DNA of 64,000 nucleotides. Source: Ilumatobacteraceae bacterium. GTDB lineage: Bacteria; Actinomycetota; Acidimicrobiia; Acidimicrobiales; Ilumatobacteraceae. The notes under the pieces are model-generated. The model saw only the letters and a list, made by a program, of their open reading frames with translations, was not told the DNA's origin and did no database searches. Of the stretch, positions 13,738 through 33,727 are shown in pieces. The position numbers and the translations under genes are program-made. Every line of letters begins with the position of its first letter. Positions within the stretch are counted from its first letter, which is position 1. The DNA lies in NCBI GenBank assembly GCA_044354345.1, contig JBILAG010000001.1:25496-89495 (forward strand). The letters are read 5' to 3'.

Positions 13738-13742
13738 TGCAA

Positions 13743-14375
13743 CTATTCTAATTGCGTTGCGGGGTTCCCTACTACGGTCACTGAATCGTTAATACTGTGA
13801 CGCACAACTGCGCCAGCACCGACAACACAATTATCACCAATCTCTACGCCTTGAATGATTACGGCCCCCGCACCAATAAATGATCCAACTCCAATTTTAA
13901 CCGAGCCTGAAATTATTGCTCCAGGAGAGATAACCGCATGGTCAGAAATTATTACGTCATGATCAACTGACGCCCGAGTATTGATCACACAATTTTCGCC
14001 CGCTCGTACTCTGTTTTGCAAAACTGCACCGGCCATGATTTGTGTGTTCTCAGCGATTTTGCACTCTGCGCCAATTGTCGCCGATGGATGTTGGACCCCA
14101 ATAAATTTAAAACCAAGGTTAAGCCAGTGATTATAAATTTCTTGTCGTGCTTGAGTGTTCTTGGTAGATCCAAGACCATTAATCAATTCAGTTTTTTTCG
14201 GGTCGAGAGTCTTAATAAAATTATCGTCACCAACAACTGGCACACCAAAAATTTGACTGCCAATTTCAAGTTGCGCGTCAATTATTCCGTTGACTGTTTT
14301 GCCTGAGGCGAGGAGTGCATCAAGCACAACTCGACCGTGGCCGCCACATGCGATCAAATATCTCTGTGTTGACAT
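13743..14375 (-). CDS. legH: NeuD/PglD-family hexapeptide sugar N-acetyltransferase (LegH-like)
   Basis: 210 aa. N-terminal Rossmann-like LIACGGHGRVV and C-terminal left-handed beta-helix repeats (IGDNCVVGAGAVV). Confidence 0.75.
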   Translation of the reverse strand: MSTQRYLIACGGHGRVVLDALLASGKTVNGIIDAQLEIGSQIFGVPVVGDDNFIKTLDPKKTELINGLGSTKNTQARQEIYNHWLNLGFKFIGVQHPSATIGAECKIAENTQIMAGAVLQNRVRAGENCVINTRASVDHDVIISDHAVISPGAIISGSVKIGVGSFIGAGAVIIQGVEIGDNCVVGAGAVVRHSINDSVTVVGNPATQLE

Positions 14376-14378
14376 TGA

Positions 14379-16621: not shown

Positions 16622-17796
16622 AATCCTAAGTTTGCGCTACTCGGCACATTGATTAATGAATTGAGAAGCATTTGCGCAACTGGTAAATCTGCACGCGGCG
16701 AGTTGTCGTACATCGGCAACTGATGCAGCAGGTTCCATGCTGGTCGACACAAATAACCTTTGGCGCGAGAAGCCGTGAGCAACTCATTTCGAGTCTGCAA
16801 GTTTGGTTTCTTGAGCCGAACAGTATTCAGCCAATAATTAGAAGTTGTCCCTTTTGGTTCGCTAACAAACTTGAGAGACTCGGAACTTTTCAGCGCAATG
16901 TCATATTTATTGGCGAGGTTTCGCTTGTTGAGTAAAAACTCGTCTAATCGATCAAGTTGAGCACATCCAAGAGCGGCATTTATATTTGGCATTCGGTAGT
17001 TCCAAGCAGTTTCGTCATGCATGAACTCCCATTCATGCGCGAGTTTCGCAGTCGTTGCGAGATGGCGAATTTTTAAAGCAAGCGATTCGTCATCCGTAAG
17101 AATTGCACCACCACCACCAGTTGTGATGGTCTTGTTGCCATTAAAACTTAAAATTCCGCAGCGACCGAATGTGCCAGTGTGTTTTTTGCCAACGAAACTT
17201 CCGAGCGACTCGGCTGCGTCTTCAACTATTGGCAAACCGAATTCTTTGGCGACCAAAGAAAGCTCTTCAATATCCATTGGGTGCCCAAATGTGTGCATCG
17301 GCACAACTGCCCCAATTCGCGCACCTGTTTTTGTGTTAATCAAATCATCGCCTTGTCGAGTTGACGTTGATGCAAGATGTTTTCGCAAAGCAATTGGATC
17401 TAACCCAAGTGTGACCGGGTCGCTGTCGGCAAAGTGTGGGGTGGCGCCGCAATGTGCAACTGCATTGGCTGTTGCAACAAAACTTAGCGACGGGATAATC
17501 ACTTCGTCACCAGGCTTGATGCCCGCCGAGTGCAGCGCAAGTTGAAGTGCGCAAGTGCCATTAACAATTGCGATTACGTGTGCGGCACCTGTGATTTTTG
17601 AAAGTTGATTTTCGAAACGAGTGATGAACTCACCAACTGATGAAACCCAACCAGATGACAAGCACTCGGCAACCATTTTGTGCTCATGAGGACCAATGTT
17701 TGGCTCGTGCAGAGCGATCGTTGATTTTTCAACTGGTCCTATTACGGAAGTTAGTACTTCAAGAAATTCTCGTGTTGGTAGATCGTAAGTCGTCAT
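16618..17796 (-). CDS. legC: DegT/DnrJ/EryC1-family PLP aminotransferase
   Basis: 392 aa. PLP-lysine context SFNGNKTITTGGGGAI. Confidence 0.85.
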   Translation of the reverse strand: MTTYDLPTREFLEVLTSVIGPVEKSTIALHEPNIGPHEHKMVAECLSSGWVSSVGEFITRFENQLSKITGAAHVIAIVNGTCALQLALHSAGIKPGDEVIIPSLSFVATANAVAHCGATPHFADSDPVTLGLDPIALRKHLASTSTRQGDDLINTKTGARIGAVVPMHTFGHPMDIEELSLVAKEFGLPIVEDAAESLGSFVGKKHTGTFGRCGILSFNGNKTITTGGGGAILTDDESLALKIRHLATTAKLAHEWEFMHDETAWNYRMPNINAALGCAQLDRLDEFLLNKRNLANKYDIALKSSESLKFVSEPKGTTSNYWLNTVRLKKPNLQTRNELLTASRAKGYLCRPAWNLLHQLPMYDNSPRADLPVAQMLLNSLINVPSSANLGL

Positions 17797-17800
17797 TTAT

Positions 17801-18793
17801 TTAAATGTTGTACCGATCTGCCTTGTATCGCGACAAATTACTCGGGTCTGAGAACCAGTCAATTGTTCGTTGTAATCCGATTTTAAATCCTTCGGCACCA
17901 TCCAACGACGGCTTCCACTTGAGAAGTTTTTCGGCTTTTTCAATTGAGGCGTGCAATCTTTCAACTTCAGAATTTTTTGGTCGATCACGTTGTTTGTCAT
18001 TAGCGAGACTTAGATCAACGCCCATAAGTTTGGCGATTGTTTTGGCAGTGTCTTCGACAGAGATTTCAAAACCACTGCCAAGGTTGATTGTTTCGCCAAT
18101 AATTGCGTCGCTTTCGGCAGCGGCGATGAAGCCAGATGCTGTGTCTTCGACAAATGTGAAGTCGCGCGTTGGAGAAAGCGACCCAAGTTTTACTTCTCGG
18201 TTTGTTGCGAGTTGACTAATAATTGTTGGGATAACCGCCCGCGCAGACTGTCTTGGTCCATATGTATTGAAAGGTCGAAGAATACCAACAGGTAAATCAA
18301 ACGAAGCATGAAAACTTAACGCAAGTTGATCAGCGCCAACTTTTGATGCCGCATATGGCGACTGCGGATGCAATGGGTGCTTCTCATCAATTGGTATGTA
18401 TTGCGCAGTGCCGTAAACCTCGCTTGTCGAAGTTTGTACAACACGCGAAACATTGTGTCGTCGCGCCGCCTGCAAAATATTTAATGTGCCCTTGATATTT
18501 GTATCGATATACGTGTCGGGCGAATGATACGAATATGGAATCGCGATCAATGCTGCGAGGTTCAAAATTACTTCTTGACCAGATACTGCAGCATCAACAC
18601 CGTGTGGATCGCGAATATCTCCGGCGAAAACGTCAAGGCTGTCACGAACGGACTGGCTCACATCGTCAAGCCATCCCCACGAATTGAAGGAGTTGTAAAG
18701 CACAAATGCTCGTACTTGATGTCCGCGTTTAACGAGTGCCTCTACTAAATGCGAACCAATAAATCCATCTGCGCCAGTTACGAGAATCTTCAT
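17801..18793 (-). CDS. legB: NAD-dependent NDP-sugar 4,6-dehydratase/epimerase-family enzyme
   Basis: 330 aa. ILVTGADGFIGSHL Rossmann motif and YAASK catalytic motif. First enzyme gene of the operon. Confidence 0.8.
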   Translation of the reverse strand: MKILVTGADGFIGSHLVEALVKRGHQVRAFVLYNSFNSWGWLDDVSQSVRDSLDVFAGDIRDPHGVDAAVSGQEVILNLAALIAIPYSYHSPDTYIDTNIKGTLNILQAARRHNVSRVVQTSTSEVYGTAQYIPIDEKHPLHPQSPYAASKVGADQLALSFHASFDLPVGILRPFNTYGPRQSARAVIPTIISQLATNREVKLGSLSPTRDFTFVEDTASGFIAAAESDAIIGETINLGSGFEISVEDTAKTIAKLMGVDLSLANDKQRDRPKNSEVERLHASIEKAEKLLKWKPSLDGAEGFKIGLQRTIDWFSDPSNLSRYKADRYNI

Positions 18794-18796
18794 TTG

Positions 18797-19108
18797 CTAT
18801 TGACCTATTGATCCGGTCAGTTTGGAGACCAAAACTGCCAATATCACTGAAATGAAAACTGCTAACACGACTCCACTAAAGAGGCTAGTGATGGCGATCA
18901 CGCCTACTGATCGGATATTCCAAGAATTTGTCGTCAGTGAGGTTAAATTAGAATCTTGAATCTCCACTTGCACCGCATGCGATTTAGTTGTATTGGAATT
19001 TCGATTTTTTGTGACCAAAAACAACGTAATCAGGCTCAGCACGATGATCGCGAGAGACCTGACCGTAACATCAAGGACGGTAAGTGACATGAGTTTCGAC
19101 ACAACCAC
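18797..19108 (-). CDS. Small predicted two-TM membrane protein. Doubtful gene.
   Basis: 103-aa ORF with two hydrophobic stretches that ends 3 nt before the legB start. Its 5' end collides with the divergent protease gene start. Confidence 0.3.
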   Translation of the reverse strand: MVVSKLMSLTVLDVTVRSLAIIVLSLITLFLVTKNRNSNTTKSHAVQVEIQDSNLTSLTTNSWNIRSVGVIAITSLFSGVVLAVFISVILAVLVSKLTGSIGQ

Positions 19109-20264
19109 GACTTCTTCTAGCGTATCGCCGGAGGCACCTGAAGAGCATCAAGACAAGAATCAAGTAGTTGTTGCGCCGCGTCAGACAAACATGTGGTGGG
19201 CAATACCAATGTTCACAATTGTTTGGCTAGTTACGAGTGCGATAATTATTTCTTCACTGGTTCGCGTTAACTATTGGGAAGTCGCACCCGGTTCAGCTGA
19301 GCAAGTTAACTCTAGATTTTCGTTTGACAAAGATGCTCTTGCGCTTGCAGATCGGTACAAGCCAACATCGCCAGTTTTATTCGTTACTGCATTTGGATCA
19401 AAGCTCTCCGCACTTGACGCTTTACTCGGCACGCTTGACCCAGATGTAGATGTATTGAATCGCGTACAAAAATTCGGCGATTCAACACCTGATCAACAAA
19501 AGAATCTCGGATATCAGTCAATGACAACTGCAAAACAAATTGCAGAATATGTCGCCATGAATCGTTTGGGCTATGAGGTGTCTATTACTTATGGAGAATT
19601 AGTTATTGATCGATTTGTTTGCGAGGCCAAACCGCGTCCACTTAGTGCATGTTTGCAACTTGGAGTTGGCGACACAATCACATCTTTTGATGGCATTAAG
19701 ATTCCGTCGTTGGCTGACCTACTTCCGCTTATGAAGAATTATTCGCCAGGCGATGTCGTTAAATTAGAAATCACACCTCATAGAACGACCGATTCAGTTA
19801 CCAAAGATGTCGAGTTGATTGCAAGTCCAGATGACGCAAATCGCACGATTATCGGAGTGTGGCCTGCTGACACGCGAATTGTTAAGTTGCCATTTGAAGT
19901 TGATATCGACACTGATCTGATTGGTGGGCCATCTGCCGGTCTTGCCTTTACGTTGGCTTTATTAGACGAATTAACTCCTGGTGATTTAACAGGTGGAGTT
20001 AAGGTAGCTGCGACTGGCACGATTGACGGCGACGAAACAGTCGGTGCGATTGGTGCGTTGCGTCAGAAAACAGTTGCCGTCAAAGCCTCTGGTGCCAAAG
20101 TATTTTTCGTGCCGAGTTCGCAATCAGCAGAAGAAATTGAGGTGGCTAAGCGTATTGCGGGATCAAAATTGCGTATTGCTCCAGTTGCAAATCTTGGTGA
20201 AGCGCTAGCAATTCTCAAAGAGTTGGGGGGTAGCGACATTTCTAATGACGCGATAGAGCTCTAG
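19089..20264 (+). CDS. PDZ-domain Lon-like (S16) serine protease, membrane-anchored
   Basis: Track ORF starts at 18993. I prefer the internal ATG at 19089 (MSFDTTT...) because it avoids most of the overlap with the minus-strand ORF. One TM (WWAIPMFTIVWLV), a PDZ-like middle region and a Lon catalytic GGPSAGLAFTLALLDELT motif. Confidence 0.75.
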   Translation: MSFDTTTTSSSVSPEAPEEHQDKNQVVVAPRQTNMWWAIPMFTIVWLVTSAIIISSLVRVNYWEVAPGSAEQVNSRFSFDKDALALADRYKPTSPVLFVTAFGSKLSALDALLGTLDPDVDVLNRVQKFGDSTPDQQKNLGYQSMTTAKQIAEYVAMNRLGYEVSITYGELVIDRFVCEAKPRPLSACLQLGVGDTITSFDGIKIPSLADLLPLMKNYSPGDVVKLEITPHRTTDSVTKDVELIASPDDANRTIIGVWPADTRIVKLPFEVDIDTDLIGGPSAGLAFTLALLDELTPGDLTGGVKVAATGTIDGDETVGAIGALRQKTVAVKASGAKVFFVPSSQSAEEIEVAKRIAGSKLRIAPVANLGEALAILKELGGSDISNDAIEL

Positions 20265-20285
20265 TCAACGTTTAACCTTATATAT

Positions 20286-22352
20286 ATGGCGATTACATTC
20301 TCGCGCCCTGACCCTTCATCCCCTGGTGCGGTTGGGTCAGCACAATTCAATATCGCGAGGCGTGGTTATGACCAAGGTGAAGTTCGTGACTTTTTGAGGA
20401 TGGTCTCGGCCGAGTTGGCCAGGCTTCAAGAGCGAGAAAGATTTTTAGAAAGCGAAATGCGCGCGATGCAAACTCGTGGATTGTCTGATCCCGGTGTTCT
20501 CGATGAAGCAACGGTTACAACTCTTCTCGGCGAAGAGACGGCTCGTGTTTTGTCTGTTGCTAGAGAAGCGGCACAACAGATGCGCATGCGTGCCGCAGAA
20601 ACTGCCGAGAGATTGGTGCGCGAAGCAACTTCTGAAGTTGCAAGGTTACGTGAAGAAGCAGAAATTGAAAACGAGCGTCGGCGAAGTGATGCCTTAGACG
20701 ACAGTGAATCAGAGATAGAACTTGCTAAACAGCAAGGTCGCGAAATGATAAACGAAGCTCGCGCGTACAAAGAGAAAATGTTGACTGAGCTCGCACGGCG
20801 TCGTGAACTTGCGAAACAGCAAATCGAACAATTAGTTCGCGATCGTGATCGGTTGATGTCAGCATTTGAACGTGCGCGGTTGGCAGCCAATGATGTGATG
20901 GGTGACTTGACTGAATTTGATGAAGCGGCTGGAGATCTAAAGCAAGCCATCCCTGAGGGAGTGGTTGACGAATCATTGCACAATGTTGTGCTTTTTGATC
21001 GAGAAAAATTTGAAGATGACACTTTGGATAATTTGCGCCCAGAAGTTGCAAAGTTTTCTGACTTTGAATCAGCGCAACAGATAGAACAAATTTCGCTAAC
21101 TACAAATGACAAAGAGTTAACTTTTGCTGCTGAAGAACCTTTTTTGACGTCGTCAGCTGACTTAGAAACTGAATCGCTAGTCGAACCAGAAGTAATGTCG
21201 GAAGTCGAACCTGAAATCAAATTAGAAGTCCAGCCAGAAGTAGAAATAGAAATAAAAGCAGAGGCACAGCCAGAAATAAAACTAAATGTAAAGCCAGAAC
21301 CAGATGAAGGCCATAGGGCGAATGTCATTCAGTTATTTGGCAGAACTTCGCGTCGCTTACATCCTTCGACTGATGCACCGCCATCTGAAGTAGCTGAGAC
21401 ACCTGAAGTAGAGCTAGAAGTAAATCCAGAAGTCATTGACACCGTCCAAGCGCTCGACACAGATACGAAGTCGGAGCAAAAGCCTGCAGTACTTGCGCCA
21501 AAAAAGTCAAATGTTGACGATCTCTTTGCGAAATTACGGGAGGCAGGTGCGAGTTCTGTAGCAAGTTCGATTAAACAAGCCGAGCCTGTTCAGAAAAAAG
21601 TCGTTAAGTCTGACCCGTCAAATACGACAGCTAGTACAGCTAGTACAACTAGCCAAACACCGGTTTCGGTGAAGCCAGATCCGCAGATATTTACCAAGCG
21701 TGATGAGGTTCTAGCCCCAATAGTCGAAGCACTGTCTAAAAAGTTTAAGCGTGTTCTCGCCGACGAAGAGAACTCAGTTCTAAACTACTTGCAAAACAAA
21801 AAAGCTCAAGTTGCATTAGAAACAGTTCTGCCGAGTTTTGATAGTCAAGTTCAATCATTTGTCGAAGCCACCAGCAAAGATTTGATTGAGGCCGCGATGG
21901 CTGGTGCGCAATCACTTTCAAAAAGTCTTAAAGCCGATCTTCGAAAAAAGATTAGTAACACGACGGTGATGCAAGTTATGTCCAAAAAACTTGCCGATGC
22001 AATTGTGCTTCCTTTGCGAACGCGAATTCAGAAATGCGTCGAGAAAAGTGCCGGTGACACTACTGAGATGTCAAGTTTGATTCGCACGGTGTACCGCGAA
22101 TGGAAAATGCAGCAGATAGATAAACTTGTCAGCGATATTGCTCGTCTCGCTTACAGTCGAGGCGCCTATCTAGTTCTTGATGCGGGAACAAAAGTCTGTT
22201 GGATGGTTGATCCGAATGGTCCTGCATGTTCAGATGCAGAAGATAATTCGCTTGCCGGCACAATTGCACTTGGAGAAAATTTTCCTACCGGGCACGAACA
22301 TCCTGTTGTTCATTCAGGATGTCGCTGTCTTGTAGTTCCAACGCAGAGGTAG
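20286..22352 (+). CDS. DivIVA-domain coiled-coil protein with acidic P-E repeat and MuF-like C-terminal motif
   Basis: 688 aa. N-terminal FNIARRGYDQGEVRDFL (DivIVA signature), a long charged coiled coil, EPEV/EPEI repeats, and C-terminal WMVDP..C..H..HSGCRCLVVP. Confidence 0.7.
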   Translation: MAITFSRPDPSSPGAVGSAQFNIARRGYDQGEVRDFLRMVSAELARLQERERFLESEMRAMQTRGLSDPGVLDEATVTTLLGEETARVLSVAREAAQQMRMRAAETAERLVREATSEVARLREEAEIENERRRSDALDDSESEIELAKQQGREMINEARAYKEKMLTELARRRELAKQQIEQLVRDRDRLMSAFERARLAANDVMGDLTEFDEAAGDLKQAIPEGVVDESLHNVVLFDREKFEDDTLDNLRPEVAKFSDFESAQQIEQISLTTNDKELTFAAEEPFLTSSADLETESLVEPEVMSEVEPEIKLEVQPEVEIEIKAEAQPEIKLNVKPEPDEGHRANVIQLFGRTSRRLHPSTDAPPSEVAETPEVELEVNPEVIDTVQALDTDTKSEQKPAVLAPKKSNVDDLFAKLREAGASSVASSIKQAEPVQKKVVKSDPSNTTASTASTTSQTPVSVKPDPQIFTKRDEVLAPIVEALSKKFKRVLADEENSVLNYLQNKKAQVALETVLPSFDSQVQSFVEATSKDLIEAAMAGAQSLSKSLKADLRKKISNTTVMQVMSKKLADAIVLPLRTRIQKCVEKSAGDTTEMSSLIRTVYREWKMQQIDKLVSDIARLAYSRGAYLVLDAGTKVCWMVDPNGPACSDAEDNSLAGTIALGENFPTGHEHPVVHSGCRCLVVPTQR
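21181..21310 (+). repeat. Imperfect in-frame tandem repeats encoding (E/Q)PE(V/I)-x-(L/I)-x acidic units
   Basis: Reiterated ccagaagt / ccagaaat / cctgaaat units. The peptide is VEPEVMSEVEPEIKLEVQPEVEIEIKAEAQPEIKLNVKPEP. Confidence 0.5.
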
Positions 22353-22362
22353 TCTTTCCCGT

Positions 22363-25329
22363 ATGCGGAACCCTTCAGACTTACCAAGATCTCCGTTTCC
22401 TCGTCGTAATTCGACAGGAGGTTTTGGTTTCAGTGCGTTTAAAAAAGGCCGAGCAATTTGGAGTGTGATATTCGCCGTATTTGTAGTCGGTGGAATTTCG
22501 GCTCGAAGCATTTCTGGTTTCTATGTTGACTTGCTGTGGCACGATGTACTGGGTCGCACAGATATTTTCTGGGGTGTAATCACCACAAAAATTTCTCTCG
22601 CCGCAATATTTGTGGCAGTTTTTGCAGTTGCCATGTTGATCAATTTGTGGCTTGCTGATCGTCTCGCACCAGAAAATGTGCCGGTGTCTGCAGAGCAAAG
22701 AGCGCTCGATGGGTATCGGCAGTTAGTCGCAAAGCGCCAATGGCTTGTTCGCATTGTGGTTTCAGTTGTGCTCGGACTTCTCGTCGGACTACCAGCCACA
22801 GCACAGTGGCAAGACTGGCAATTGTTTCGCAATGCGCAACAGTTCGGTATAAAAGACCCGTTGTTTTCACGAGATTTAAGCTTTTATATTTTCCGTCTGC
22901 CATTTCTTGAATTTTTAGTTAGTTGGTTGTTGGCGGCACTCGTATTAATAACCCTCGTCACAACAATGATCCACTATCTAAATGGTTCGATTCAGTTGCA
23001 AATGCAGGGTCGTCGGGTTACTCCACAAGCAAAAGCTCACCTCTCGGTTTTGTTCGCGCTAATTGCATTGTCGCGAGCAGCGTCATATTGGCTTGGCCGC
23101 TTTGAACTAACTCGCTCAACTCGTGGTGTGGTGCAGGGAGCAACTTATACAGACGTAAATGCTCAACTACCGGCAACAAGTTTGATGATTCTTGTTTCGC
23201 TTGCAGTAGCAGCTTTGTTTTTATGGAATGTTTTGCAAAGAGGATGGCGACTTCCTGTTTTAGCAACAATGCTTTGGGTAGTTGTCGCAATTGTCGCTGG
23301 CGCAATTTACCCTTCACTTGTACAGCGTTTTTCTGTGCAGCCGAACGTCAGCACAAAAGAGCTTCCTTACATCGAACGCAACTTGATTGCAACAAAAAAT
23401 GCAATGGGTTTGAGTGATGTCAAACAAGTTGATGTCAAATATGGCTCGATCACAGCAGCAGATGTCTCTGCAGATGCCGAACCATTGCGCGATGTTCGAC
23501 AACTCGACCCATTGCAGATGCGTGATCGGTTTGTTTTGGATGAAGGACAGACTTCGTACTACGCGATTCGTGATCTAGATGTTGACCGTTACGCGATTGA
23601 TGGACGAGTCCAACAAGTGCTTGTTGGCGCCCGAGAGTTAAATACTGATGGCATACCGAACCGCACTTGGGTTTCACGTCACCTTCTTTATACACACGGC
23701 TGCGGACTCGTTGTTGCACCAGCAAGCAAAGTCACGGTTGACGGTCGACCAATTTATACGAACCTTGATGTGAAGCGACCCGAGTTGTATTTTGGCGAAG
23801 GACTTAATTCTTACGCATTGGTAAATAGTCGCGAAGTAGAACAGTCATGTGCTGATGGCAAAACAAGTGCATTCTCTGGAACGGGTGGTGTGCAACTTTC
23901 GTCACTTGTTCGCCGAGCAGCATTCGCCGTTCATTTTGGCGAGTACAACCTCGTTGGATCAGGCTTGATCACACCTCAGTCGCAGATAATGTTTTTTCGA
24001 AACGTTCGTGAGCGAGCGGAGAAAATTGCACCATTCTTAAAAATGGACTCCGACCCGTATCCGGTCGTAGTTGACGGAAAAGTCATGTGGGTGTTGGATG
24101 CATTTACAACAACCGATCGTTATCCGTATGCGCAACGGGCGAATATCGATCAATTGAGTAGCGGCAGCGGACTAAACACAAACTTTAACTACGTTCGCAA
24201 CAGTGTAAAAATTGTCGTTGATGCCTATGACGGTTCGATGAAGTTTTATGTCGTAGATCCAAAAGATCCAATTATCAATACTTGGCAATCCATTTATCCA
24301 AAGTTGTTCACTTCAGTGTCACTCGCACCGAAGCAACTTGTTGAACACTTTAGATATCCAGAGGATTTGTTTAGAGTGCAAACAAACACTTACGGTCGAT
24401 ATCAGTTTGATGACGCAACAATGTTTTTTAATCGCAACGCTGCATGGAGTGTTGCTCAAGCGCCGGCAATTGAACCAGAAGGATTAACTAGTGCAGTTTC
24501 TGGCGGACTCGTAGACGACTTGAATTCAGTTAATACCGGAGAAGTTCGTGATGCCAGCGTGGCGCGGTTCGAACCGTATTACACGATGTTTCATGAGCCA
24601 AATAGTGCCCAAAAAACTGGTGTATTTTCAATGTTGCGTCCGTTTGTGCCGTTCTCAGCAGATAACGCAAGAAAAGAATTGCGTGCGTTTATGACAGTTT
24701 CAAGCGACCCTGCAACTTATGGTCAGTTGACAGTTTTCAAAATAAATGACCCGCTTCCAGAAGGACCAGCAACAGTTGCCGCAGAAATTGGCAGTGACCC
24801 TGCAGTTTCTCAACAGATAACTTTGCTCGACCAAAGAGGCTCTCGAGTAATTTATGGTGACTTGCAAATAGTCAACATCGGAAAAGGTTTGGTCTATGTT
24901 CGGCCATTATTTGTGCGACCGGATGACCCATCGGCAAAACAAATATTTGTTAGAAAATTTCTTGCGTCATACAACAACAAAGTGGTTCTCGCTGACGATC
25001 TAACTTCGGCAATTGCTAAATTGTTTCCGGGCTTCAAAGATAATCTTGGCGACAGAATTAATGACGGTTCTGCTACGCCAGCCGAAGACACAGCAACTAG
25101 TAGTGCTCCAACCGACGACGCAGCAACGACTGATACAACTTTGCCGTCAAGTACGGGTGGCAATGCAGCATTGGATACTCCGAACGCATTGCTCGCAAAA
25201 GCTGAAGAGTTATTTGCAGAAGCCGACGCAGCTCTTGGTAATACTCCGCCAGATTTTTCTTTGTATCAGCAGAAACTCGCAGAAGCTAGAAGTTTAATTA
25301 GCCAAGCAATTTCACTAATCGGCGGCTGA
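22363..25329 (+). CDS. UPF0182-family large integral membrane protein (Rv3193c-like)
   Basis: 988 aa. Several N-terminal TM helices followed by a very large soluble region. Size, architecture and adjacency to the PDZ protease match the actinobacterial UPF0182 locus. Confidence 0.7.
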   Translation: MRNPSDLPRSPFPRRNSTGGFGFSAFKKGRAIWSVIFAVFVVGGISARSISGFYVDLLWHDVLGRTDIFWGVITTKISLAAIFVAVFAVAMLINLWLADRLAPENVPVSAEQRALDGYRQLVAKRQWLVRIVVSVVLGLLVGLPATAQWQDWQLFRNAQQFGIKDPLFSRDLSFYIFRLPFLEFLVSWLLAALVLITLVTTMIHYLNGSIQLQMQGRRVTPQAKAHLSVLFALIALSRAASYWLGRFELTRSTRGVVQGATYTDVNAQLPATSLMILVSLAVAALFLWNVLQRGWRLPVLATMLWVVVAIVAGAIYPSLVQRFSVQPNVSTKELPYIERNLIATKNAMGLSDVKQVDVKYGSITAADVSADAEPLRDVRQLDPLQMRDRFVLDEGQTSYYAIRDLDVDRYAIDGRVQQVLVGARELNTDGIPNRTWVSRHLLYTHGCGLVVAPASKVTVDGRPIYTNLDVKRPELYFGEGLNSYALVNSREVEQSCADGKTSAFSGTGGVQLSSLVRRAAFAVHFGEYNLVGSGLITPQSQIMFFRNVRERAEKIAPFLKMDSDPYPVVVDGKVMWVLDAFTTTDRYPYAQRANIDQLSSGSGLNTNFNYVRNSVKIVVDAYDGSMKFYVVDPKDPIINTWQSIYPKLFTSVSLAPKQLVEHFRYPEDLFRVQTNTYGRYQFDDATMFFNRNAAWSVAQAPAIEPEGLTSAVSGGLVDDLNSVNTGEVRDASVARFEPYYTMFHEPNSAQKTGVFSMLRPFVPFSADNARKELRAFMTVSSDPATYGQLTVFKINDPLPEGPATVAAEIGSDPAVSQQITLLDQRGSRVIYGDLQIVNIGKGLVYVRPLFVRPDDPSAKQIFVRKFLASYNNKVVLADDLTSAIAKLFPGFKDNLGDRINDGSATPAEDTATSSAPTDDAATTDTTLPSSTGGNAALDTPNALLAKAEELFAEADAALGNTPPDFSLYQQKLAEARSLISQAISLIGG

Positions 25330-25784: not shown

Positions 25785-25861
<77 letters not shown>

Positions 25862-25884: not shown

Positions 25885-26643
25885 ATGAACAGGCTTGAAC
25901 GAGTGCGGACAATTCGCAAATCATTGGGTGCAGGTTCGGCAGTCGTCGGAAGTTGGATGCAAATTCCTGATTCGAGTATTGCAGAGATCATGGGTCGCGC
26001 TGGTTACCAATGGGTTGCAATCGACATGGAGCATGGCCCCGTTTCGGTTAGCCAGCTGCCTGATATTTTTCGTGCGCTTGAACTCGGGGGCACACTCCCT
26101 TTAGCGCGCGTCGCAAGCCCTTTGCCAATTAATTGTCGACAAGCTCTTGACCAAGGAGCTGGTGGTGTGGTGATTCCGATGATTTCTTCGGCCTCGCAAC
26201 TTGAAGCGATTATCAGTGAATGTCACTGGCCGCCTCGTGGGCGACGCGGAGTGGGCTTTCAACGAGCAAATGTTTTCGGAAAGTTTTTTGATTCGTATCT
26301 CGAAGAATCACAAGAGGCTCTTGTCGTCGCCCAAATCGAACACGTTGATGCCGTTAACAACCTTGAATCAATTGTCGCTGTGTATGGTTTGGATGCGATC
26401 ATGGTCGGCCCATACGACTTGTCGGCATCGCTCGGCATTACTGGTGACTTCGAAAACAAAAAGTTTCTTGACACGCTTACTCAAATTCTCAAAGTGTGCG
26501 AAAAATTTAAAATGCCATGCGGAATGCATGTTGTTCAGCCAGATACAAAAATGCTTGAGCAACGAATTCGTGAAGGTTACACATTCATTGCCTACGGCGT
26601 CGATACCGTATTTTTGAATCAGGGCGCAGCTGCGCCACTTTGA
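25885..26643 (+). CDS. HpcH/HpaI-family class II (pyruvate) aldolase
   Basis: 252 aa. GSWMQIPDSSIAEIMGRAGYQWVAIDMEHGP and VGPYDLSASLG motifs typical of 2-keto-3-deoxy-acid aldolases. Confidence 0.75.
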   Translation: MNRLERVRTIRKSLGAGSAVVGSWMQIPDSSIAEIMGRAGYQWVAIDMEHGPVSVSQLPDIFRALELGGTLPLARVASPLPINCRQALDQGAGGVVIPMISSASQLEAIISECHWPPRGRRGVGFQRANVFGKFFDSYLEESQEALVVAQIEHVDAVNNLESIVAVYGLDAIMVGPYDLSASLGITGDFENKKFLDTLTQILKVCEKFKMPCGMHVVQPDTKMLEQRIREGYTFIAYGVDTVFLNQGAAAPL

Positions 26644-26701: not shown

Positions 26702-27754
26702 ATGAGTGCAAAAGTTTTAAAAGTCGGTATCGCTGGTTATGGCGTGGTCGGTAAGCGCCGTGGTGATTGCGTTGAACGGCACCCTGATCTTGAACTCGTC
26801 GCGGTTTGCGATCGGGTATTCAAAGACGATGGAGTATTACCAAACGGTGTAAAACACTTTCGTACCTACCAGCAACTTTTAGAACAAAAACTAGACGTCT
26901 TGATTGTCTGTGTAACCAACGACATCGCCGCAGAAGTTACTCAAGCGGCTTTGAACCTTGGTCTTCATGTGTTTTGTGAGAAGCCGCCAGGTCGAGACAT
27001 TGCCGACATCACTCGTGTAATTGAAACTGAAAAGAAAAATCCAAATTGTCGATTGATGTATGGTTTTAACCACCGCTACCACGATTCGGTGCAAGATGCA
27101 CTGAAAATTATTCGTTCTGGTCGTTTCGGCGAGATCATCAATATGCGAGGTGTATACGGAAAATCGAAGTTAATAACTTTTAATCAAGCCGACTGGCGAG
27201 CTAAAAGAGAAATTGCTGGCGGAGGAGTGCTTTTAGATCAAGGCATTCACATGGTTGATCTAATGCGTCTGATGGCCGGTGAGTTCGTAGATGTCCAGAG
27301 TTTTATATCAAACGGTCACTGGGGATACAACGTTGAAGATAATGCGTATGCATTAATGAAAACCAAAGATGGCGTTGTGGCGATGCTCAATTCATCTGCG
27401 ACCCAATGGCGACATCAATTTAGTCTTGATATAAATATGCAACGCGGTGGTGTAATTTTGCGAGGAATTTTGACCGGCTCTAAAAGTTATGGAAACGAGA
27501 CGATGACACTCGTAACTGCCGACCCAGATCGAGACAACGGTGACCCGAAAGAAGAACTTTTTGAATACAAAGACGACCCATCTTGGGATTCTGAAATTGC
27601 AGCGTTCACGCAAAGTATTCTTCATAATCAACCCGTTCAAAACGGCACGTCACGCGATGCCTTCGAAACAATGAAACTTGTCTATAAAATTTATTATGCC
27701 GATCCAATTTGGCGTAACAAATTTGACATAAAGAACCCTGAGGTGCCCCAATGA
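26702..27754 (+). CDS. Gfo/Idh/MocA-family NAD(P) oxidoreductase
   Basis: 350 aa. VGIAGYGVVGKRR Rossmann motif and EKP motif (FCEKPPG). Confidence 0.75.
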   Translation: MSAKVLKVGIAGYGVVGKRRGDCVERHPDLELVAVCDRVFKDDGVLPNGVKHFRTYQQLLEQKLDVLIVCVTNDIAAEVTQAALNLGLHVFCEKPPGRDIADITRVIETEKKNPNCRLMYGFNHRYHDSVQDALKIIRSGRFGEIINMRGVYGKSKLITFNQADWRAKREIAGGGVLLDQGIHMVDLMRLMAGEFVDVQSFISNGHWGYNVEDNAYALMKTKDGVVAMLNSSATQWRHQFSLDINMQRGGVILRGILTGSKSYGNETMTLVTADPDRDNGDPKEELFEYKDDPSWDSEIAAFTQSILHNQPVQNGTSRDAFETMKLVYKIYYADPIWRNKFDIKNPEVPQ

Positions 27755-28602
27755 GCGATACGTCGATGCCCGATCTGTCGATGACCGATCTGACAATTAA
27801 TGATATTCAAGGTCTCGTGATCGCGACGACAGAACTTGTGCGCAGCGTAGGTAAAAAATTTATTCGCGCAAATAGTCAAGAAGCAAAAGAAGTTGTTGAT
27901 CTTCAAGTGGGTGGGCGTGAAATTAAACTTGCCGCCGACAAAATTTTAGAAAAGCAACTGATTAAAGGAGTACACAGTTTCGGCTTTCCTATCCTTAGCG
28001 AAGAAACTGGGTTCATTGATTCAGGTAAATTCAGAAATTTGCTTTGGGTAATTGACCCATTAGACGGCAGCTACAACTTCAGCAGAGGCCTCGGACCTTC
28101 GATGATTTCTTTGGCATTATGGCAAGGCAATGAGCCCGTTCTTGGTGTGTTGTTTAATTTGGTAACAAAGCAACTGACTTTTGGTGGACCCAAAATCGGT
28201 GCATACGTTGAAAAAGTTCTTGTACATGTGTCTGATCGTGAAGAACGTCGCCAGGCGACACTATGCACCGGGTTTCCAAGTCGGTTTCCAATTGATGATC
28301 CGCGAGCCGTTGAAGCCTTCGCAACAACAATGCGCTCGTTTGGAAAAATACGGATGATTGGCGCAGCGGCAGCCTCGTTGTGGCTTGTTGCAACTGGCGC
28401 AGCCGATGTTTATGCCGAGCACAACATTATGTTTTGGGATGTTGCCGCAGGCTTGGCAATCGTGAATGGCGCAGGGGGCACATTCGAAATCGAAGGAGTT
28501 AACTTGCCCGAGCGAATCTTCAGCGAGCCATGCACCGTGGTTGCAAGCAACGGTAAATTTGATGCATCAGTGTCAATGTTTGACGCTGTGCGAGGGTTGT
28601 GA
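27751..28602 (+). CDS. Inositol-monophosphatase-family phosphatase (IMPase/CysQ-like)
   Basis: 283 aa. WVIDPLDGSYNF and WDVAAG metal-binding motifs. ATGA overlap with the upstream gene. Confidence 0.8.
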   Translation: MSDTSMPDLSMTDLTINDIQGLVIATTELVRSVGKKFIRANSQEAKEVVDLQVGGREIKLAADKILEKQLIKGVHSFGFPILSEETGFIDSGKFRNLLWVIDPLDGSYNFSRGLGPSMISLALWQGNEPVLGVLFNLVTKQLTFGGPKIGAYVEKVLVHVSDREERRQATLCTGFPSRFPIDDPRAVEAFATTMRSFGKIRMIGAAAASLWLVATGAADVYAEHNIMFWDVAAGLAIVNGAGGTFEIEGVNLPERIFSEPCTVVASNGKFDASVSMFDAVRGL

Positions 28603-29705
28603 TGACGAGCCTTGATACAGGTGTCAAAGTTGTTCGTAATGTTGGAAGATTCACGATTGGTGATGGTTCAATTTCAGGAGTCGCAGATTTAGTAAATTCG
28701 CAACGCACTAAAGATTCACCTAATGCGGTCTATTTGATCGATGAGTTTTTTGAAAATAGTAGAAATGTTCTTGACTCGTTAGGAATGATTGCGGGCGATG
28801 CAAAACACTTTATAAAAACCGCAAATGAGCCGACAACTCAAGGAATCGATGAACTAGTAAGCACACTTCAATTGTCAGGCCATAATCATCCAGCAACAAT
28901 TGTCGGCATTGGTGGCGGGATCACGCTAGATACTGCAAAGGCTGTAGCGAACCTATTGACAAATGGTGGCAAGGCAGCCGACTACCAAGGTTGGGATTTA
29001 GTGCGTGTACCTGGTGTTCACAAAATTGGTGTACCGACTATTTCGGGCACTGGTGCTGAAGCAACACGCACATGCGTGATGACGAATCTCGAAACCGGCC
29101 TCAAGTTAGGTATGAATAGTGATTACACAGTTTTTGATCACATCATTTTGGACCCGGGTTTGACCAGCACTGTTCCGCGAAATCAATACTTCTATACGGG
29201 TATGGATGCTTATATTCATTGCATTGAAGCGTTAGATGGTTCGTACCGAAATGCAATTGGTGATGCGTATTCTCGAGAAACCGTAAATCTTTGTCGCAAT
29301 ATATTTTTAAGTAGTGACATGATGGCTGATGCTCGACGCAGCGATTTGATGGTCGCCAGTTATTTGGGTGGGTGTGCAATCGCCACGAGTTATGTCGGGA
29401 TAATCCACCCATTTTCAGCGGCGTTGAGTGTTGTCTTTGGCATGCATCATTGTGTAGCAAACTGTGTCGTGCTTAATGCGATGAGTGAGTTTTATCCTGA
29501 AGCACATAGCGAATTTCGAAAGATGATTGAGTTGCAAAAAGTTGAACTACCAAGCGGCGTGTGTGCCAACCTTACTGATGATCTACGCCAAGCCTTGATT
29601 GCCGCAACGATCAAACACGAAAAGCCACTTACTAACGCATTGGGTACCGAGTTTCGAGCCACGCTCACGGACGCAAGGATCATCTCGCTGTTCGAGAAGA
29701 TGTAA
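28599..29705 (+). CDS. Iron-containing alcohol-dehydrogenase-family oxidoreductase
   Basis: 368 aa. GIGGGITLDTAKAVA, GTGAEATRT and a His-rich HPFSAALSVVFGMHHC metal site. The start may be the ATG at 28602. Confidence 0.75.
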   Translation: MMTSLDTGVKVVRNVGRFTIGDGSISGVADLVNSQRTKDSPNAVYLIDEFFENSRNVLDSLGMIAGDAKHFIKTANEPTTQGIDELVSTLQLSGHNHPATIVGIGGGITLDTAKAVANLLTNGGKAADYQGWDLVRVPGVHKIGVPTISGTGAEATRTCVMTNLETGLKLGMNSDYTVFDHIILDPGLTSTVPRNQYFYTGMDAYIHCIEALDGSYRNAIGDAYSRETVNLCRNIFLSSDMMADARRSDLMVASYLGGCAIATSYVGIIHPFSAALSVVFGMHHCVANCVVLNAMSEFYPEAHSEFRKMIELQKVELPSGVCANLTDDLRQALIAATIKHEKPLTNALGTEFRATLTDARIISLFEKM

Positions 29706-29728
29706 AGATCTCAGAGTAAAATCAAGAT

Positions 29729-30889
29729 ATGCCTGGGTACGAACTTATTGGTGCCGAAGAACAGGCGCAAGTAGACGATATTTTTCAACACGGCGGAGTG
29801 CTGTTTCGTCACTCTTTTGATCACCTACGCCAAGACCGTTGGAAGGTTCGCGATTTTGAACAAGAGTTTGCAAAATCTGTCGACATGCCGCACGCTCTTG
29901 CGGTTACATCTGGCACCGCAGCCCTGCGGGTTGCACTTGCTGTTTTAGATTTACAACCAGGCGACGAAGTAATCACCCAGAGTTTTACGTTCGTCGCCAC
30001 CGTTGAGGCGATAATTGAAGCAGGAGCAATACCGGTGTGTGCAGAAATTGACGGCACATTGAATATCGATCCTGAATCATTGAAGTCGTTGATCACCCCG
30101 AAAACTAAAGCCGTGATCGCAGTGCACATGCTGGGTACACCTGCTCGGCTGTTCGAAATTGATGACATTTGTCGAAAAAATAATCTCACTCTTATTGAAG
30201 ATGCGGCGTGGGGATGCGGCGGCTCACTTGATGGCCGGCCGTTGGGCACTTGGGGTCGAATGGGAACCTTTAGTTTCGACTTTGCAAAGACTATGACCAC
30301 TGGCGAGGGTGGAATGATCGTGTTTCAAAATGAAGACGATTACAAAGTGGCCGCAGCATGGCATGATCATGGTCACGAGAACAATCCGAGTGTGCCACGC
30401 TGGGAAGACACCCGCGCAAGCAGTGGTTTCAACTTTCGGATGACAGAGATGCAAGGTGCAGTTGGTTTAGCTCAGTTGAAAAAACTTTCACACGTCGTGA
30501 CGATGCAACGAAAAAATCGAGATTCAATGTGGGCGGCGATAAAAAATCTTCCTGGAATTATTCCGCGCGAAGTTCCGAATGGGTCTCACGAAACCGCCGA
30601 CGCACTTATATTTAGTGTGGCCGACAAGGCAACTGCAAGAAAATGTCGTGATTCGTTGTTAACTGAAGGTCTATCAACCAAAATTTTACCCGAGGCAGTC
30701 ACATGGCATTTTGCTGGCACTTGGACGCACATGTCTGAACTTGTGGCACGGCATGGCGGAGACTTAGCAAAAGCTTTTGGGCCATCGCGGTCGCGACTCG
30801 AACGAGCGGTTTCGCTGCCAGTTGTTGTAAAAATGGATGAGACGGTTCCGGCGAGATTGCACACCGCACTATCAAAAGTTTTGAGCTAG
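29729..30889 (+). CDS. DegT/DnrJ/EryC1-family PLP aminotransferase
   Basis: 386 aa. PLP-lysine context [14 protein letters not shown]. Confidence 0.8.
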
Positions 30890-30896
30890 CAAGACT

Positions 30897-31574
30897 ATGG
30901 CTCAGCCAGTAATCTCAGTCATAATTGCCGCCTACAACCAAGAGCGATATTTGACAAGATGCTTAAGGTCATTGCTTGCACAAAGTTTCGCGCTTGACAG
31001 GTTTGAAATCGTTGTAATCAATGACGGCAGCACAGATCACAGTGCAAACGTGTTAAAAGAATTTAGTGACGAAATAGTTTTAATAACAAATGAGAGCAAT
31101 ATTGGTTTACCTGCATCGCTGAACAAAGCCATCCGTCGAGCGCGAGCACCGTATGTAGTGCGTGTAGATGCCGATGATTATGTGAATAACGAGTTTCTAC
31201 ACCTACTGCATGAGTTTCTGCGCGAGAATAAATACATGGATGCGATCGCTTGTGACTATTTGTTGGTTGATGAGCAAGAAGAGGTTCTCGCTCGAAACAA
31301 CTGTTTGACTGAACCAATCGCTTGCGGCATTATGTTTCGCACCGAACAGTTGATTGACATTGGTCTGTACGACGAGTCTTTTTTGCTGCATGAAGAAACT
31401 GATCTTCGGTTGAGGTTCACTAAGAAGTACAAAATTCATCGACTTGAGCTACCTCTATATCGATATCGTCGCCATGCGAATAACTCAACTAATGATGTTG
31501 AAGCAATGGAACATCACCGTCAGCGAATTATTGAAAAGCACGGCGAAGAGCACGCCGAAAGGTCCGGTCAATGA
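30897..31574 (+). CDS. Family-2 glycosyltransferase (short, SpsA-like)
   Basis: 225 aa. [13 protein letters not shown] and VRVDADDY (DxD) motifs. Confidence 0.8.
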
Positions 31575-32638
31575 TGATTTCTATGCGTTTTGGTAATCGA
31601 TTAGTTGGCGAAAACGACTTACCATACGTCATCGCTGAAATCGGGGTCAACCATGAGGGTTCACTCGCGACAGCAAAACTTTTAATTGAAGCGGCCAAGC
31701 GTGGTGGGGCTGATGCCGCGAAGTTTCAAACTTACAAGGCGGGTTTAATAGCATCAAAATTTTCGCCGTCATATTGGGATACGAGCAAAGAGCCAACGAC
31801 TAGCCAGTATGAATTGTTTACCAAATACGACTCGTTCGGCGAATCCGAATATAAAGAGCTTGCAGATCATTGCAAAAAATTCGAGATCGAATTTGTTTCG
31901 ACGCCTTTTGATCTCGGCGCCGTTGAGATGCTTGATCCATTAGTGAAGTATTTCAAAATTGCATCAGCGGACATTACGAACCCACCATTACTGAAAAAAG
32001 TTGCCGCAACAGGCAAGCCAGTTATTTTGTCTACTGGGGCATCGAATATTGGCGAGATAGATGCGGCATTAGCGATATTGCGTGCAGCAGGTGCTCAACA
32101 AATTTGTTTGATGCATTGCATTCTCAATTATCCAACTCGAGACCAAAATGCTCATCTGGGGATGCTCACGGGTTTACACAATCGTTACCCAGAGCTATTG
32201 CTTGGATATTCCGATCACACGTTGCCAACAGAAGATATGACAAGTTTGATCGCAGCACATTTGCTAGGTGCAGTTGTGCTTGAAAAGCATTTTACTCTTG
32301 ATAAAACTTTGCCTGGCAACGACCACTACCACGCAATGGATGAATTTGATTTGGCAAGATTTCAAGTCAAAGTTAAAAAAGTTCACGAATTACTTGGGCC
32401 AACACGTGATAAAGCGCCAATCGCCACAGAAGATATTTCACGACTTAATGCGAGACGGAGCATCGTCTTAACACGTGATCTCAAATCTGGGCACGAAATT
32501 GTTGAGAGTGATTTAGTTGCGAAACGTCCTGGTACTGGTGTTAGTCCGATCAGTTGGGATGAGGTAATTGGCAAAAAAGTAGTTCGAGATCTACCAGAAG
32601 ATCACATTCTGACTTGGGATGACTTAACTAAATCATGA
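31571..32638 (+). CDS. NeuB-family PEP-condensing ulosonic acid synthase (SpsE-like), second copy in the window
   Basis: 355 aa. [12 protein letters not shown] and C-terminal [18 protein letters not shown] overlaps on both sides. Confidence 0.8.
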
Positions 32639-33339
32639 CCCGAGTTGTTGCCGTGGTGCAGGCGCGCATGGGATCACAGCGGTTTCCGGGCAAGATGTTG
32701 GCAAAACTTGGTGAACGTGACTTGTTGGGTTGGGTATTGACTCGTGTATGTGACGCTGAACAACTAGATCAAGTCGTGCTCGCAACTTCAGACAGTAGCG
32801 ACGACGACCAACTCGCCGATGCTGCATCAAATTTTAATGCGCTTGTCGTTCGGGGTAGTCAAAACGATGTCTTAGATCGATTCGTACAATCGGCAAAAGT
32901 TTCACAAGCAGATTTAGTAGTTCGGGTTTGTGCCGACAATCCATTTATCGCCGCCGAAGAGATCGATCGCTTAGTCTTTGCCCACGAATCTGGCAGCTAT
33001 GACTATTCGTGCAATCATCAGCAAAAACTTAATAACAGATATGCCGATGGTTTTGGCGCCGAAATTCTTTCTACAATACTGTTAAACAACATTGCAGATT
33101 TGACTACCCAGCAGTCGCATCGCGAGCATGTCACAAGTTACATTTGGGACAATATAGAAAAATACAAAATTCAGGCGGTGGCAGCACCAGCTGAGCTGGC
33201 GTTTCCTGAAATTAAATTAGACATTGATACTCCACAAGATATGCAAAAGTTAGATGAATTTGTCAATAAATTCGCGATAACTACTAAGTCAAGCGCAGCA
33301 GAAGTCGTAATAGCTTTCAATAAATTTAAGAATTCTTGA
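32635..33339 (+). CDS. SpsF/KdsB-like cytidylyltransferase
   Basis: 234 aa. VVQARMGSQRFPGK N-terminal motif. Confidence 0.75.
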   Translation: MTRVVAVVQARMGSQRFPGKMLAKLGERDLLGWVLTRVCDAEQLDQVVLATSDSSDDDQLADAASNFNALVVRGSQNDVLDRFVQSAKVSQADLVVRVCADNPFIAAEEIDRLVFAHESGSYDYSCNHQQKLNNRYADGFGAEILSTILLNNIADLTTQQSHREHVTSYIWDNIEKYKIQAVAAPAELAFPEIKLDIDTPQDMQKLDEFVNKFAITTKSSAAEVVIAFNKFKNS

Positions 33340-33352
33340 GTAGTCTGCAGGG

Positions 33353-33727
33353 ATGTCAAATACAAAACCAGAAGTCGTGATTCCACAAACACCTGCGCCG
33401 AGCACTTTAGTAACCGAAGATATTACGGTTGGCGACGGCGTTGAAGCCGTTAGCGGCAAGACTGTCTCTGTGCACTACGTCGGTGTGGCATGGAGCACCG
33501 GAAAACAATTTGATGCATCATGGGATCGCAATGAACCATTTGATTTTGGTTTGGGTGCCGGTCAAGTTATTTCAGGCTGGGATAAAGGCGTTGCGGGTAT
33601 GAAAGTTGGCGGACGACGCAAACTTACAATCCCGCCAGACATGGGTTACGGCAGTCAGGGAGCAGGCGGAGTAATTAAGGGCGGCGAGACACTTGTGTTC
33701 GTTGTTGATTTACTAAACGTCGTTTAG
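33353..33727 (+). CDS. FKBP-type peptidyl-prolyl cis-trans isomerase
   Basis: 124 aa. VHYVGV...GQVISGWDKGVAGMKVGGRRKLTIPP..GYG. Confidence 0.85.
   Translation: MSNTKPEVVIPQTPAPSTLVTEDITVGDGVEAVSGKTVSVHYVGVAWSTGKQFDASWDRNEPFDFGLGAGQVISGWDKGVAGMKVGGRRKLTIPPDMGYGSQGAGGVIKGGETLVFVVDLLNVV

Follow-up and report, generated by a model that had tools for sequence, protein, structure and literature searches.

The closest described system to the locus treated here is the KdnA/KdnB pair of Shewanella, in which the terminal alcohol of a free ulosonic acid is oxidized and transaminated before the sugar is activated with cytidine monophosphate (CMP). KdnB (EC 1.1.3.48) is said, following Gattis et al. 2013, to act on the primary alcohol of the free acid. 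What is said here about KdnB chemistry is background, drawn in part from PMC5125639 and from the names that PDB entries give to the molecules. The product, the 8-amino derivative (Kdo8N) of 3-deoxy-D-manno-oct-2-ulosonic acid (Kdo), has been regarded as a distinguishing feature of the lipopolysaccharide (LPS) of Shewanella (PMC6357163). A second group of relatives are the nonulosonic acid pathways (NeuB/NeuA for N-acetylneuraminic acid, LegI/LegF, PseI/PseF and SpsE/SpsF), where a NeuB-family synthase with a SAF domain is followed by a CTP_transf_3 cytidylyltransferase. Genes of both kinds are found together in the stretch that we analyzed, 64,000 nucleotides of an Ilumatobacteraceae bacterium (GCA_044354345.1, contig JBILAG010000001.1, positions 25,496 to 89,495; hereafter the window), which encodes an iron-dependent alcohol dehydrogenase (Fe-ADH) and a DegT-type aminotransferase close to a NeuB-type synthase and a cytidylyltransferase. 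We propose, with moderate confidence, that the Fe-ADH and the aminotransferase form a distinct KdnB/KdnA subfamily, which would act on the product of the NeuB-type synthase rather than on Kdo.

The KdnB/KdnA-like pair of the window

The initial annotation, made from the sequence alone, had placed the Fe-ADH and the DegT aminotransferase side by side at 28599-30889, upstream of a phosphoenolpyruvate (PEP)-condensing synthase and a cytidylyltransferase. Both open reading frames and their Pfam families were confirmed, and a single gene, for a small family 2 glycosyltransferase (GT2), separates the pair from the NeuB gene (Table 1). The claimed likeness to KdnB and KdnA is borne out by searches against the PDB. 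The best matches of the Fe-ADH were 3rf7 (E 1e-86), presumably from Shewanella denitrificans, and S. oneidensis KdnB (5k8c, E 1e-84), with the next family at 5e-24; that of the aminotransferase was KdnA (5k8b, E 5e-89), with the best sugar-nucleotide or other DegT enzyme at 3.5e-43. KdnB and KdnA thus surpass other families by 40-60 orders of magnitude, and the contrary outcome named in the initial annotation, an Fe-ADH resembling glycerol, propanediol or dehydroquinate synthase (DHQS)-like enzymes and an aminotransferase resembling those for 4-keto-6-deoxy sugars, was not observed at these distances. In BLASTP alignments, the Fe-ADH is 40% identical to KdnB 5k8c over 353 residues and the aminotransferase 43% identical to KdnA 5k8b over 340 residues. 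The start codons fit, as the N-terminus of the Fe-ADH agrees with its relatives and the alignment of the aminotransferase to KdnA begins at the first residue.

The catalytic residues are intact. For the metal and NAD sites, a check of which had been proposed, we found D203, H207, H270 and H284 as well as G105-G107 kept in at least 90% of the sequences of both clades described below; the same holds for D111, which together with the three glycines completes the nucleotide motif GGG(S/I)xxD. In the aminotransferase, the Schiff-base lysine K187 lies in the motif SFDFAKT and is likewise conserved in both clades. The window shares with Shewanella both protein families, the adjacency of their genes and the residues for metal, NAD and pyridoxal phosphate (PLP) binding. 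From this resemblance, we predict that the Fe-ADH oxidizes an ulosonic acid at its terminal CH2OH and that the aminotransferase aminates the resulting aldehyde.

A reading of the Fe-ADH as a housekeeping or catabolic alcohol dehydrogenase was rejected on the evidence weighed against the rival explanations.

Two branches of KdnB and KdnA relatives

When one genome for each GTDB species was scanned with a sequence pattern, relatives turned up in at least 571 species; 80 loci (labeled with L numbers below) were kept for comparison. These fall into two types. Window-like loci encode relatives that are 46-93% identical and lie beside a NeuB-type synthase gene, a CTP_transf_3 gene or both, whereas the relatives in Shewanella-like loci are 40-44% identical and have no NeuB-type or CTP_transf_3 gene within 8 kb.

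Trees were computed as quick maximum-likelihood searches, with the Shimodaira-Hasegawa approximate likelihood-ratio test (SH-aLRT) as the only measure of support. In the KdnB tree, both Shewanella proteins belong to a 37-row clade (SH-aLRT 100, stem 1.16) devoid of NeuB linkage, which also holds sequences from Thiomicrospira, Sulfurivirga, Desulfobacterales, Verrucomicrobia, Flavobacteriaceae and Chitinophagaceae. The Fe-ADH of the window lies outside this clade, among the NeuB-linked rows. When the tree is rooted with an outgroup, these rows resemble a grade from which the Shewanella-type clade arises, but the deep nodes reach only about 81-83 and we do not rely on them. The KdnA tree has a superclade (98) made up of two sister clades, one of the Shewanella type (99, 16 rows) and one linked to NeuB (99, 22 rows); the aminotransferase of the window belongs to the latter. 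In the phylogenetic comparison with KdnA and KdnB suggested in the initial annotation, the pair thus falls outside the Shewanella-type clade in either tree. On these trees, we regard the window proteins as members of the KdnB and KdnA families that are not orthologues of the Kdo8N enzymes.

The surroundings of the genes follow the same division. In all 16 Shewanella-type loci that contain both genes, the aminotransferase gene is upstream of the Fe-ADH gene, the reverse of the order in the window. These loci do not confirm the statement in the initial annotation that the window has the gene order of Shewanella. An annotated Thiomicrospira locus (L079) reads kdnA-kdnB-kdsB-waaA, where kdsB scores above its cut-off (318 bits) and waaA below its equivalog cut-off (262 bits), and a Tenacibaculum locus (L069) reads kdnA-kdsB-kdnB. 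This is the Kdo and LPS setting expected for Kdo8N. Unlike the Shewanella system, the pair of the window stands beside a NeuB-type synthase, an SpsF-type cytidylyltransferase and a GT2, and its substrate is probably another sugar acid. The two clades also differ within the proteins: KdnB sequences at eight highly conserved positions, of which P271 and A274 adjoin the metal ligand H270, and KdnA sequences at twenty discriminating positions, with a cluster in the loop 217-229 directly after the conserved DHGH motif. Differences at these sites fit a changed substrate pocket.

If the operon nevertheless made genuine Kdo8N, or another eight-carbon acid, with the pair acting exactly as in Shewanella, the NeuB-like enzyme would have to replace KdsA by condensing PEP with arabinose or arabinose-5-phosphate, an inositol monophosphatase (IMPase)-type enzyme would replace KdsC and the cytidylyltransferase KdsB. 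That the nearest characterized enzymes are KdnB and KdnA, that an IMPase-type gene lies immediately upstream of the oxidase gene and that homologues are annotated as Kdo 8-oxidase by the Joint Genome Institute (JGI) speaks for such a route, as do the 74 bits that the cytidylyltransferase obtains with KdsB subfamily models against 26 bits with PseF. Yet all KdsB and PseF equivalog models remain far below their cut-offs, the pair lies outside the clade linked to kdsB and waaA and differs from it close to the active site, and we know of no NeuB-family enzyme that makes Kdo. Further, searches of the host genome, which is 90% complete, gave no match to the Kdo transferase domain of WaaA (PF04413) or to the KDO8P synthase KdsA (TIGR01362), and the host appears to be a monoderm without LPS. 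We consider this explanation improbable; a separate branch tied to NeuB, and not to KdsA, KdsB and WaaA, makes literal Kdo8N the less likely product. The automatic label Kdo 8-oxidase is probably wrong for the NeuB-linked branch.

Many loci of Flavobacteriaceae (L054-L056, L058-L060, L062, L063 and others) have a Shewanella-type KdnB gene and no KdnA-like gene within 8 kb, so that the partner is either elsewhere in the genome or the oxidase acts alone.

The core module and its predicted product

The NeuB-linked branch is characterized by a conserved core module of five genes, encoding the KdnB-like and KdnA-like proteins, the small GT2, NeuB and the cytidylyltransferase, which we found in Actinomycetota, Leptospira, Burkholderiaceae and Verrucomicrobiota. 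Their order is identical across unrelated contexts and phyla (L004, L006, L007, L014-L022): in a metagenome contig with GT1 genes, in a likely diderm genome with Wzi nearby, in actinobacterial contigs that share the protease/DivIVA/UPF0182 synteny of the window, and in genomes of Burkholderiaceae, Chthoniobacterales and Ilumatobacteraceae. In Leptospira idonii and in a Leptonemataceae genome, these genes recur but are rearranged; the sequence in L. idonii is KdnB-like, GT2, NeuB, cytidylyltransferase, methyltransferase, carbamoyltransferase, KdnA-like. Compared with the window, the Leptospira module has the methyl- and carbamoyltransferases in addition and lacks the three genes that precede the pair in the window. 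In Campylobacter concisus, Gallionella, Chlorobium, Rhodospirillaceae and Desulfovibrionaceae, the KdnB-like gene is accompanied by a CTP_transf_3 gene, and by NeuB where the contig extends far enough, while an unrelated DegT clade replaces KdnA. The operon of C. concisus additionally encodes a methyltransferase, a radical SAM/SPASM protein, a hexapeptide acyltransferase and a 522-residue protein with a nucleotidyltransferase-like N-terminus. The methyltransferase, hexapeptide acyltransferase and carbamoyltransferase of these variants are tailoring genes as expected for a new amine or hydroxyl group and so favor the proposed action on the synthase product. Oxidation followed by transamination would thus have a sister branch much wider than the Shewanella type, wired to synthases of the sialic acid type and reaching bacteria without LPS.

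A search of 150 other genomes from the family of the host revealed a KdnB-like gene in 12 (4 of 61 genera), all of them between 1.5 and 2.4 Mb in size. Three contigs that are 82-93% identical to the window locus (L009, L010, L041) bear the titles 'Ferrithrix thermotolerans DSM 19514' and 'Bifidobacterium breve' and look mislabeled.

The NeuB proteins encoded beside KdnB-like genes form one tight subfamily in our tree. The branch that sets them apart from NeuB of N. meningitidis, SpsE of B. subtilis and the other three NeuB paralogues in the host genome has an SH-aLRT value of 96. The NeuB of the operon has SpsE (1vli, 3e-53) as its best match of solved structure and stays below the equivalog cut-offs of TIGR03569 (317 bits, cut-off 399.65) and of the pseudaminic acid synthase model TIGR03586 (236.7 bits, cut-off 340.25). 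The module NeuB keeps the equivalents of the N. meningitidis residues E25, K129, H215, E234, H236, D247 and R314, and the catalytic residues are kept in all members. Eukaryotic NeuB-type synthases use sugar 6-phosphates. As in these, the position of E134 is occupied by aspartate in the module NeuBs (31 of 31), a weak hint of a sugar phosphate substrate, which in turn would fit the IMPase-family gene directly before the oxidase gene. The exchange of E134 for aspartate has been reported for archaeal and eukaryotic synthases (PMC8208679). In this subfamily membership, the aspartate and the scores below the NeuB and PseI cut-offs, the synthase departs from those of the known nonulosonic acid pathways, and the core module also differs from them in having no 4,6-dehydratase, no N-acetyltransferase and no hydrolyzing 2-epimerase.

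For the two remaining core proteins, the best PDB matches are structures for which we found no assigned function. The cytidylyltransferase matched 6oew (1.6e-27), with KdsB structures only at 2e-06, and is predicted to activate the finished sugar acid with CMP. The GT2 matched 6p61 over its whole length (1.3e-84 over 215 residues) and its gene is present in 24 of about 37 loci linked to NeuB or the CMP-transferase gene; the protein could be either an assembly-line transferase or a step in nucleotide-sugar handling. We take 6p61 (glycosyltransferase), 6oew (cytidylyltransferase) and 6ncs (sialic acid synthetase) to be Leptospira structural-genomics targets.

Variants without the GT2 encode a protein of 520-545 residues between the aminotransferase and the cytidylyltransferase (L025:10361-11995, L027:9171-10793, L030:10956-12524, L037:10255-11844), which in L030 has a weak nucleotidyltransferase-like match at its N-terminus and may take over the function of the GT2. 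Genes for radical SAM/SPASM and DUF4910/DUF2172/HTH_47 proteins are often found close by.

Taken together, the gene content suggests a pathway that would begin with a condensation, catalyzed by the NeuB-like enzyme, of PEP and an aldose or its phosphate from central metabolism to a 3-deoxy-2-ulosonic acid. If this product is phosphorylated, a phosphatase would free the terminal CH2OH, and in the window the adjacent IMPase-family enzyme is the candidate for removing the phosphate before oxidation. The KdnB-like metal- and NAD-dependent enzyme would then oxidize the terminal CH2OH to the aldehyde, the PLP-dependent KdnA-like enzyme would transaminate the aldehyde to a terminal amine, and the SpsF-type cytidylyltransferase would form the CMP-sugar, ready to be transferred onto a glycan in the cell envelope of this apparently monoderm actinobacterium. 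Our analysis supports directly that the two proteins belong to their families and have intact catalytic residues, that the pair occupies a phylogenetic position of its own and that the module is conserved; we infer the substrate, the number of carbons, the sequence of the steps and what the GT2 and the three upstream genes do. The initial annotation had put forward a terminally aminated octulosonic or nonulosonic acid as a candidate product, a proposal to which membership in the KdnB and KdnA families lends support, although the product itself would follow only by inference.

The most likely product is a CMP-activated ulosonic acid with a terminal amino group, its backbone probably of nine carbons, and a nine-carbon product seems more likely than Kdo8N itself. 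Since legionaminic and pseudaminic acids are 9-deoxy sugars and an oxidase of terminal alcohols needs a terminal hydroxyl group, acids of these two types are excluded as substrates. More tentatively, as a possibility that we rate somewhat below even, the module could make a 9-amino-9-deoxy nonulosonic acid, a zwitterionic amino form of ketodeoxynonulosonic acid (Kdn) or of sialic acid not yet described in nature. Abundant, streamlined Actinomycetota of fresh water would carry this sugar on their envelopes, and Leptospira, Campylobacter concisus and Desulfovibrionaceae would carry related forms. If true, a terminal-amino nonulosonic acid would constitute a new class of surface sugar, with a positive charge where sialic acids are often O-acetylated, and would affect how phages and grazers recognize abundant planktonic actinobacteria as well as the antigen structure of Leptospira and C. 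concisus.

Several points weigh against the pathway outlined here. An identity of 40-43% to KdnB and KdnA leaves the position attacked and the substrate unfixed, although the type of reaction is likely to be kept. So simple a scheme has no step for the conserved small GT2, the core module of most lineages has no phosphatase, and the HpcH-family aldolase encoded upstream of the pair in this lineage is a second C-C bond-forming enzyme that the scheme leaves unexplained. Among the 127 neighboring genes of 20 module loci, a Pfam tally gave generic glycan genes, radical SAM/SPASM, DUF4910 and methyltransferases, with no recurrent gene for aldose supply (NeuC, SIS or a mannose enzyme); the lack of a consistently linked supplier does, on the other hand, favor a substrate from central metabolism. 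Finally, as the genome is a metagenome-assembled one (2.1 Mb, 153 contigs) of 90% completeness, the missing matches to KdsA and WaaA are no proof.

Searches of the literature for KdnA/KdnB, Kdo8N and related terms gave no published characterization of this module. A cluster described in a paper on nonulosonic acids of Leptospira differs from it, and a table in a comparative-genomics study contains an automatically named kdnB in Leptospira interrogans.

The upstream triad, operon layout and host genome

In the window, the pair is preceded by genes for an HpcH/HpaI-family aldolase, a Gfo/Idh/MocA oxidoreductase and the IMPase-family phosphatase. Of the 80 loci, only the closest relatives (L009-L013 and L041) have this triad before the module, which makes it a lineage-specific add-on. 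Searches of the three proteins against the PDB and NCBIfam gave generic family matches only: YfaU, GarL and HpaI (about 1e-32) for the aldolase, matches of 4e-23 or weaker for the Gfo protein, which is also far below all NCBIfam equivalog cut-offs, and 2pcr (5e-26) for the IMPase-family protein. If the module makes a 9-amino-9-deoxy nonulosonic acid, the triad may in this lineage contribute to the supply of the sugar or to its extension.

Aldolase homologues of about 60% identity occur in other glycan loci that have neither NeuB nor KdsA (L093:7014-10635, L094:3948-9537, L095:3892-10509), where their partners are Gfo/Idh/MocA and IMPase proteins, a GmhA-like SIS_2 isomerase, a 2-hydroxyacid dehydrogenase and CTP_transf_3. 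This looks like a separate route, based on a pyruvate aldolase, to a CMP-activated keto-deoxy sugar acid.

The triad bears on two further explanations. In the first, the pair would act before or away from the finished ulosonic acid, on the aldose precursor, on a sugar carried by the GT2 product or on a keto-deoxy acid made by the HpcH aldolase, and the amine would come to lie at a non-terminal or otherwise different position. The genes of the GT2 and, in this lineage, of the triad are translationally coupled to the pair, the triad can serve an ulosonic-acid-like route of its own, since it occurs elsewhere with CTP_transf_3 and without NeuB, and in several variants an unrelated DegT aminotransferase takes the place of the KdnA-type enzyme. 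Against this, most lineages carry the core module without the triad, the sole partnership that is constant across phyla is that of the KdnB-like protein with the special NeuB subfamily and CTP_transf_3, and the chemistry reported for KdnB is the oxidation of a primary alcohol on the free ulosonic acid. We therefore judge an earlier action rather unlikely.

In the second, the IMPase, Gfo/Idh/MocA and DegT proteins would make scyllo-inosamine from inositol phosphate and the Fe-ADH would be unrelated to sugar acids. The three families are indeed the textbook set for inosamine synthesis, and among the NCBIfam models the Gfo protein scores best with inositol 2-dehydrogenase, at 96 bits against a cut-off of 355. 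However, the inosose aminotransferases 2c7t and 5w71 match the aminotransferase at only about 3e-36, more than 50 orders of magnitude behind KdnA (5e-89), the operon contains no inositol-phosphate synthase according to its Pfam annotation, and the aminotransferase keeps its KdnB-like, NeuB and cytidylyltransferase partners in lineages without any IMPase and Gfo genes. With the aminotransferase nearer to KdnA and its partners persisting without these genes, we rejected an aminocyclitol product, to which we would assign only a very slight chance, and retain the NeuB product as the proposed substrate of the pair.

The operon of eight genes and the FKBP gene that follows it make up nine tightly packed genes on the + strand, with gaps of -4 to 58 nucleotides, between a tRNA-Met gene and a convergent thymidine kinase gene. 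The IMPase gene overlaps each of its neighbors by 4 nucleotides, the Gfo gene on one side and, on the other, the Fe-ADH gene, whose start overlaps its stop, and it is thus translationally coupled to the oxidase gene. Scans of the locus for promoters and terminators gave no excess over shuffled expectation.

Table 1. Features of the operon and its left boundary (positions in the window).
Feature	Position	Strand	Length and start	Basis and remarks
tRNA-Met (CAT)	25785..25861	+		ARAGORN; left boundary of the operon, outside the pathway
HpcH/HpaI-family class II pyruvate aldolase	25885..26643	+	252 aa	Pfam PF03328, E 4e-32
Gfo/Idh/MocA NAD(P) sugar oxidoreductase	26702..27754	+	350 aa	Pfam PF01408, PF22725, PF02894
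IMPase/FBPase-family sugar-phosphate phosphatase	27751..28602	+	283 aa	Pfam PF00459, E 1e-34
KdnB-like Fe-dependent alcohol dehydrogenase/oxidase	28599..29705	+	368 aa, GTG	Fe-ADH (PF00465) and ADH_Fe_C (PF25137)
KdnA-like PLP aminotransferase	29729..30889	+	386 aa, ATG	DegT_DnrJ_EryC1 (PF01041), E 3e-81
Small soluble GT2 glycosyltransferase	30897..31574	+	225 aa	Pfam PF00535
NeuB-family PEP-dependent ulosonic acid synthase with SAF domain	31571..32638	+	355 aa	PF03102 and PF08666
SpsF/KdsB-like CTP_transf_3 cytidylyltransferase	32635..33339	+	234 aa	PF02348, E 2e-26, 93.5 bits
FKBP-type peptidyl-prolyl isomerase	33353..33727	+		PF00254; last gene on the strand

The FKBP gene follows the cytidylyltransferase gene after 13 nucleotides and is kept at this place only in the close relatives L010, L011 and L029. 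It is probably co-transcribed with the operon, and the isomerase has no evident link to the pathway.

The host is a small-genome actinobacterium of the freshwater type. In its genome, we counted four NeuB-family and six CTP_transf_3 genes (contigs C30, C131, C3, C144 and C65), an unusually heavy investment in sugars of the ulosonic acid type for a streamlined genome. The operon has as neighbors in the window the genes of a PDZ-Lon-like protease, a DivIVA protein and a UPF0182 protein, and these three are flanked on one side by the operon and on the other by a second nonulosonic acid cluster (10255-18793 and 18993-25329), which was of the legionaminic acid type according to the initial annotation. 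At this left-hand position, the relatives L007 and L008 have a set of NeuC, NeuB and phosphatase genes, the NeuB being 60% identical to that of N. meningitidis.

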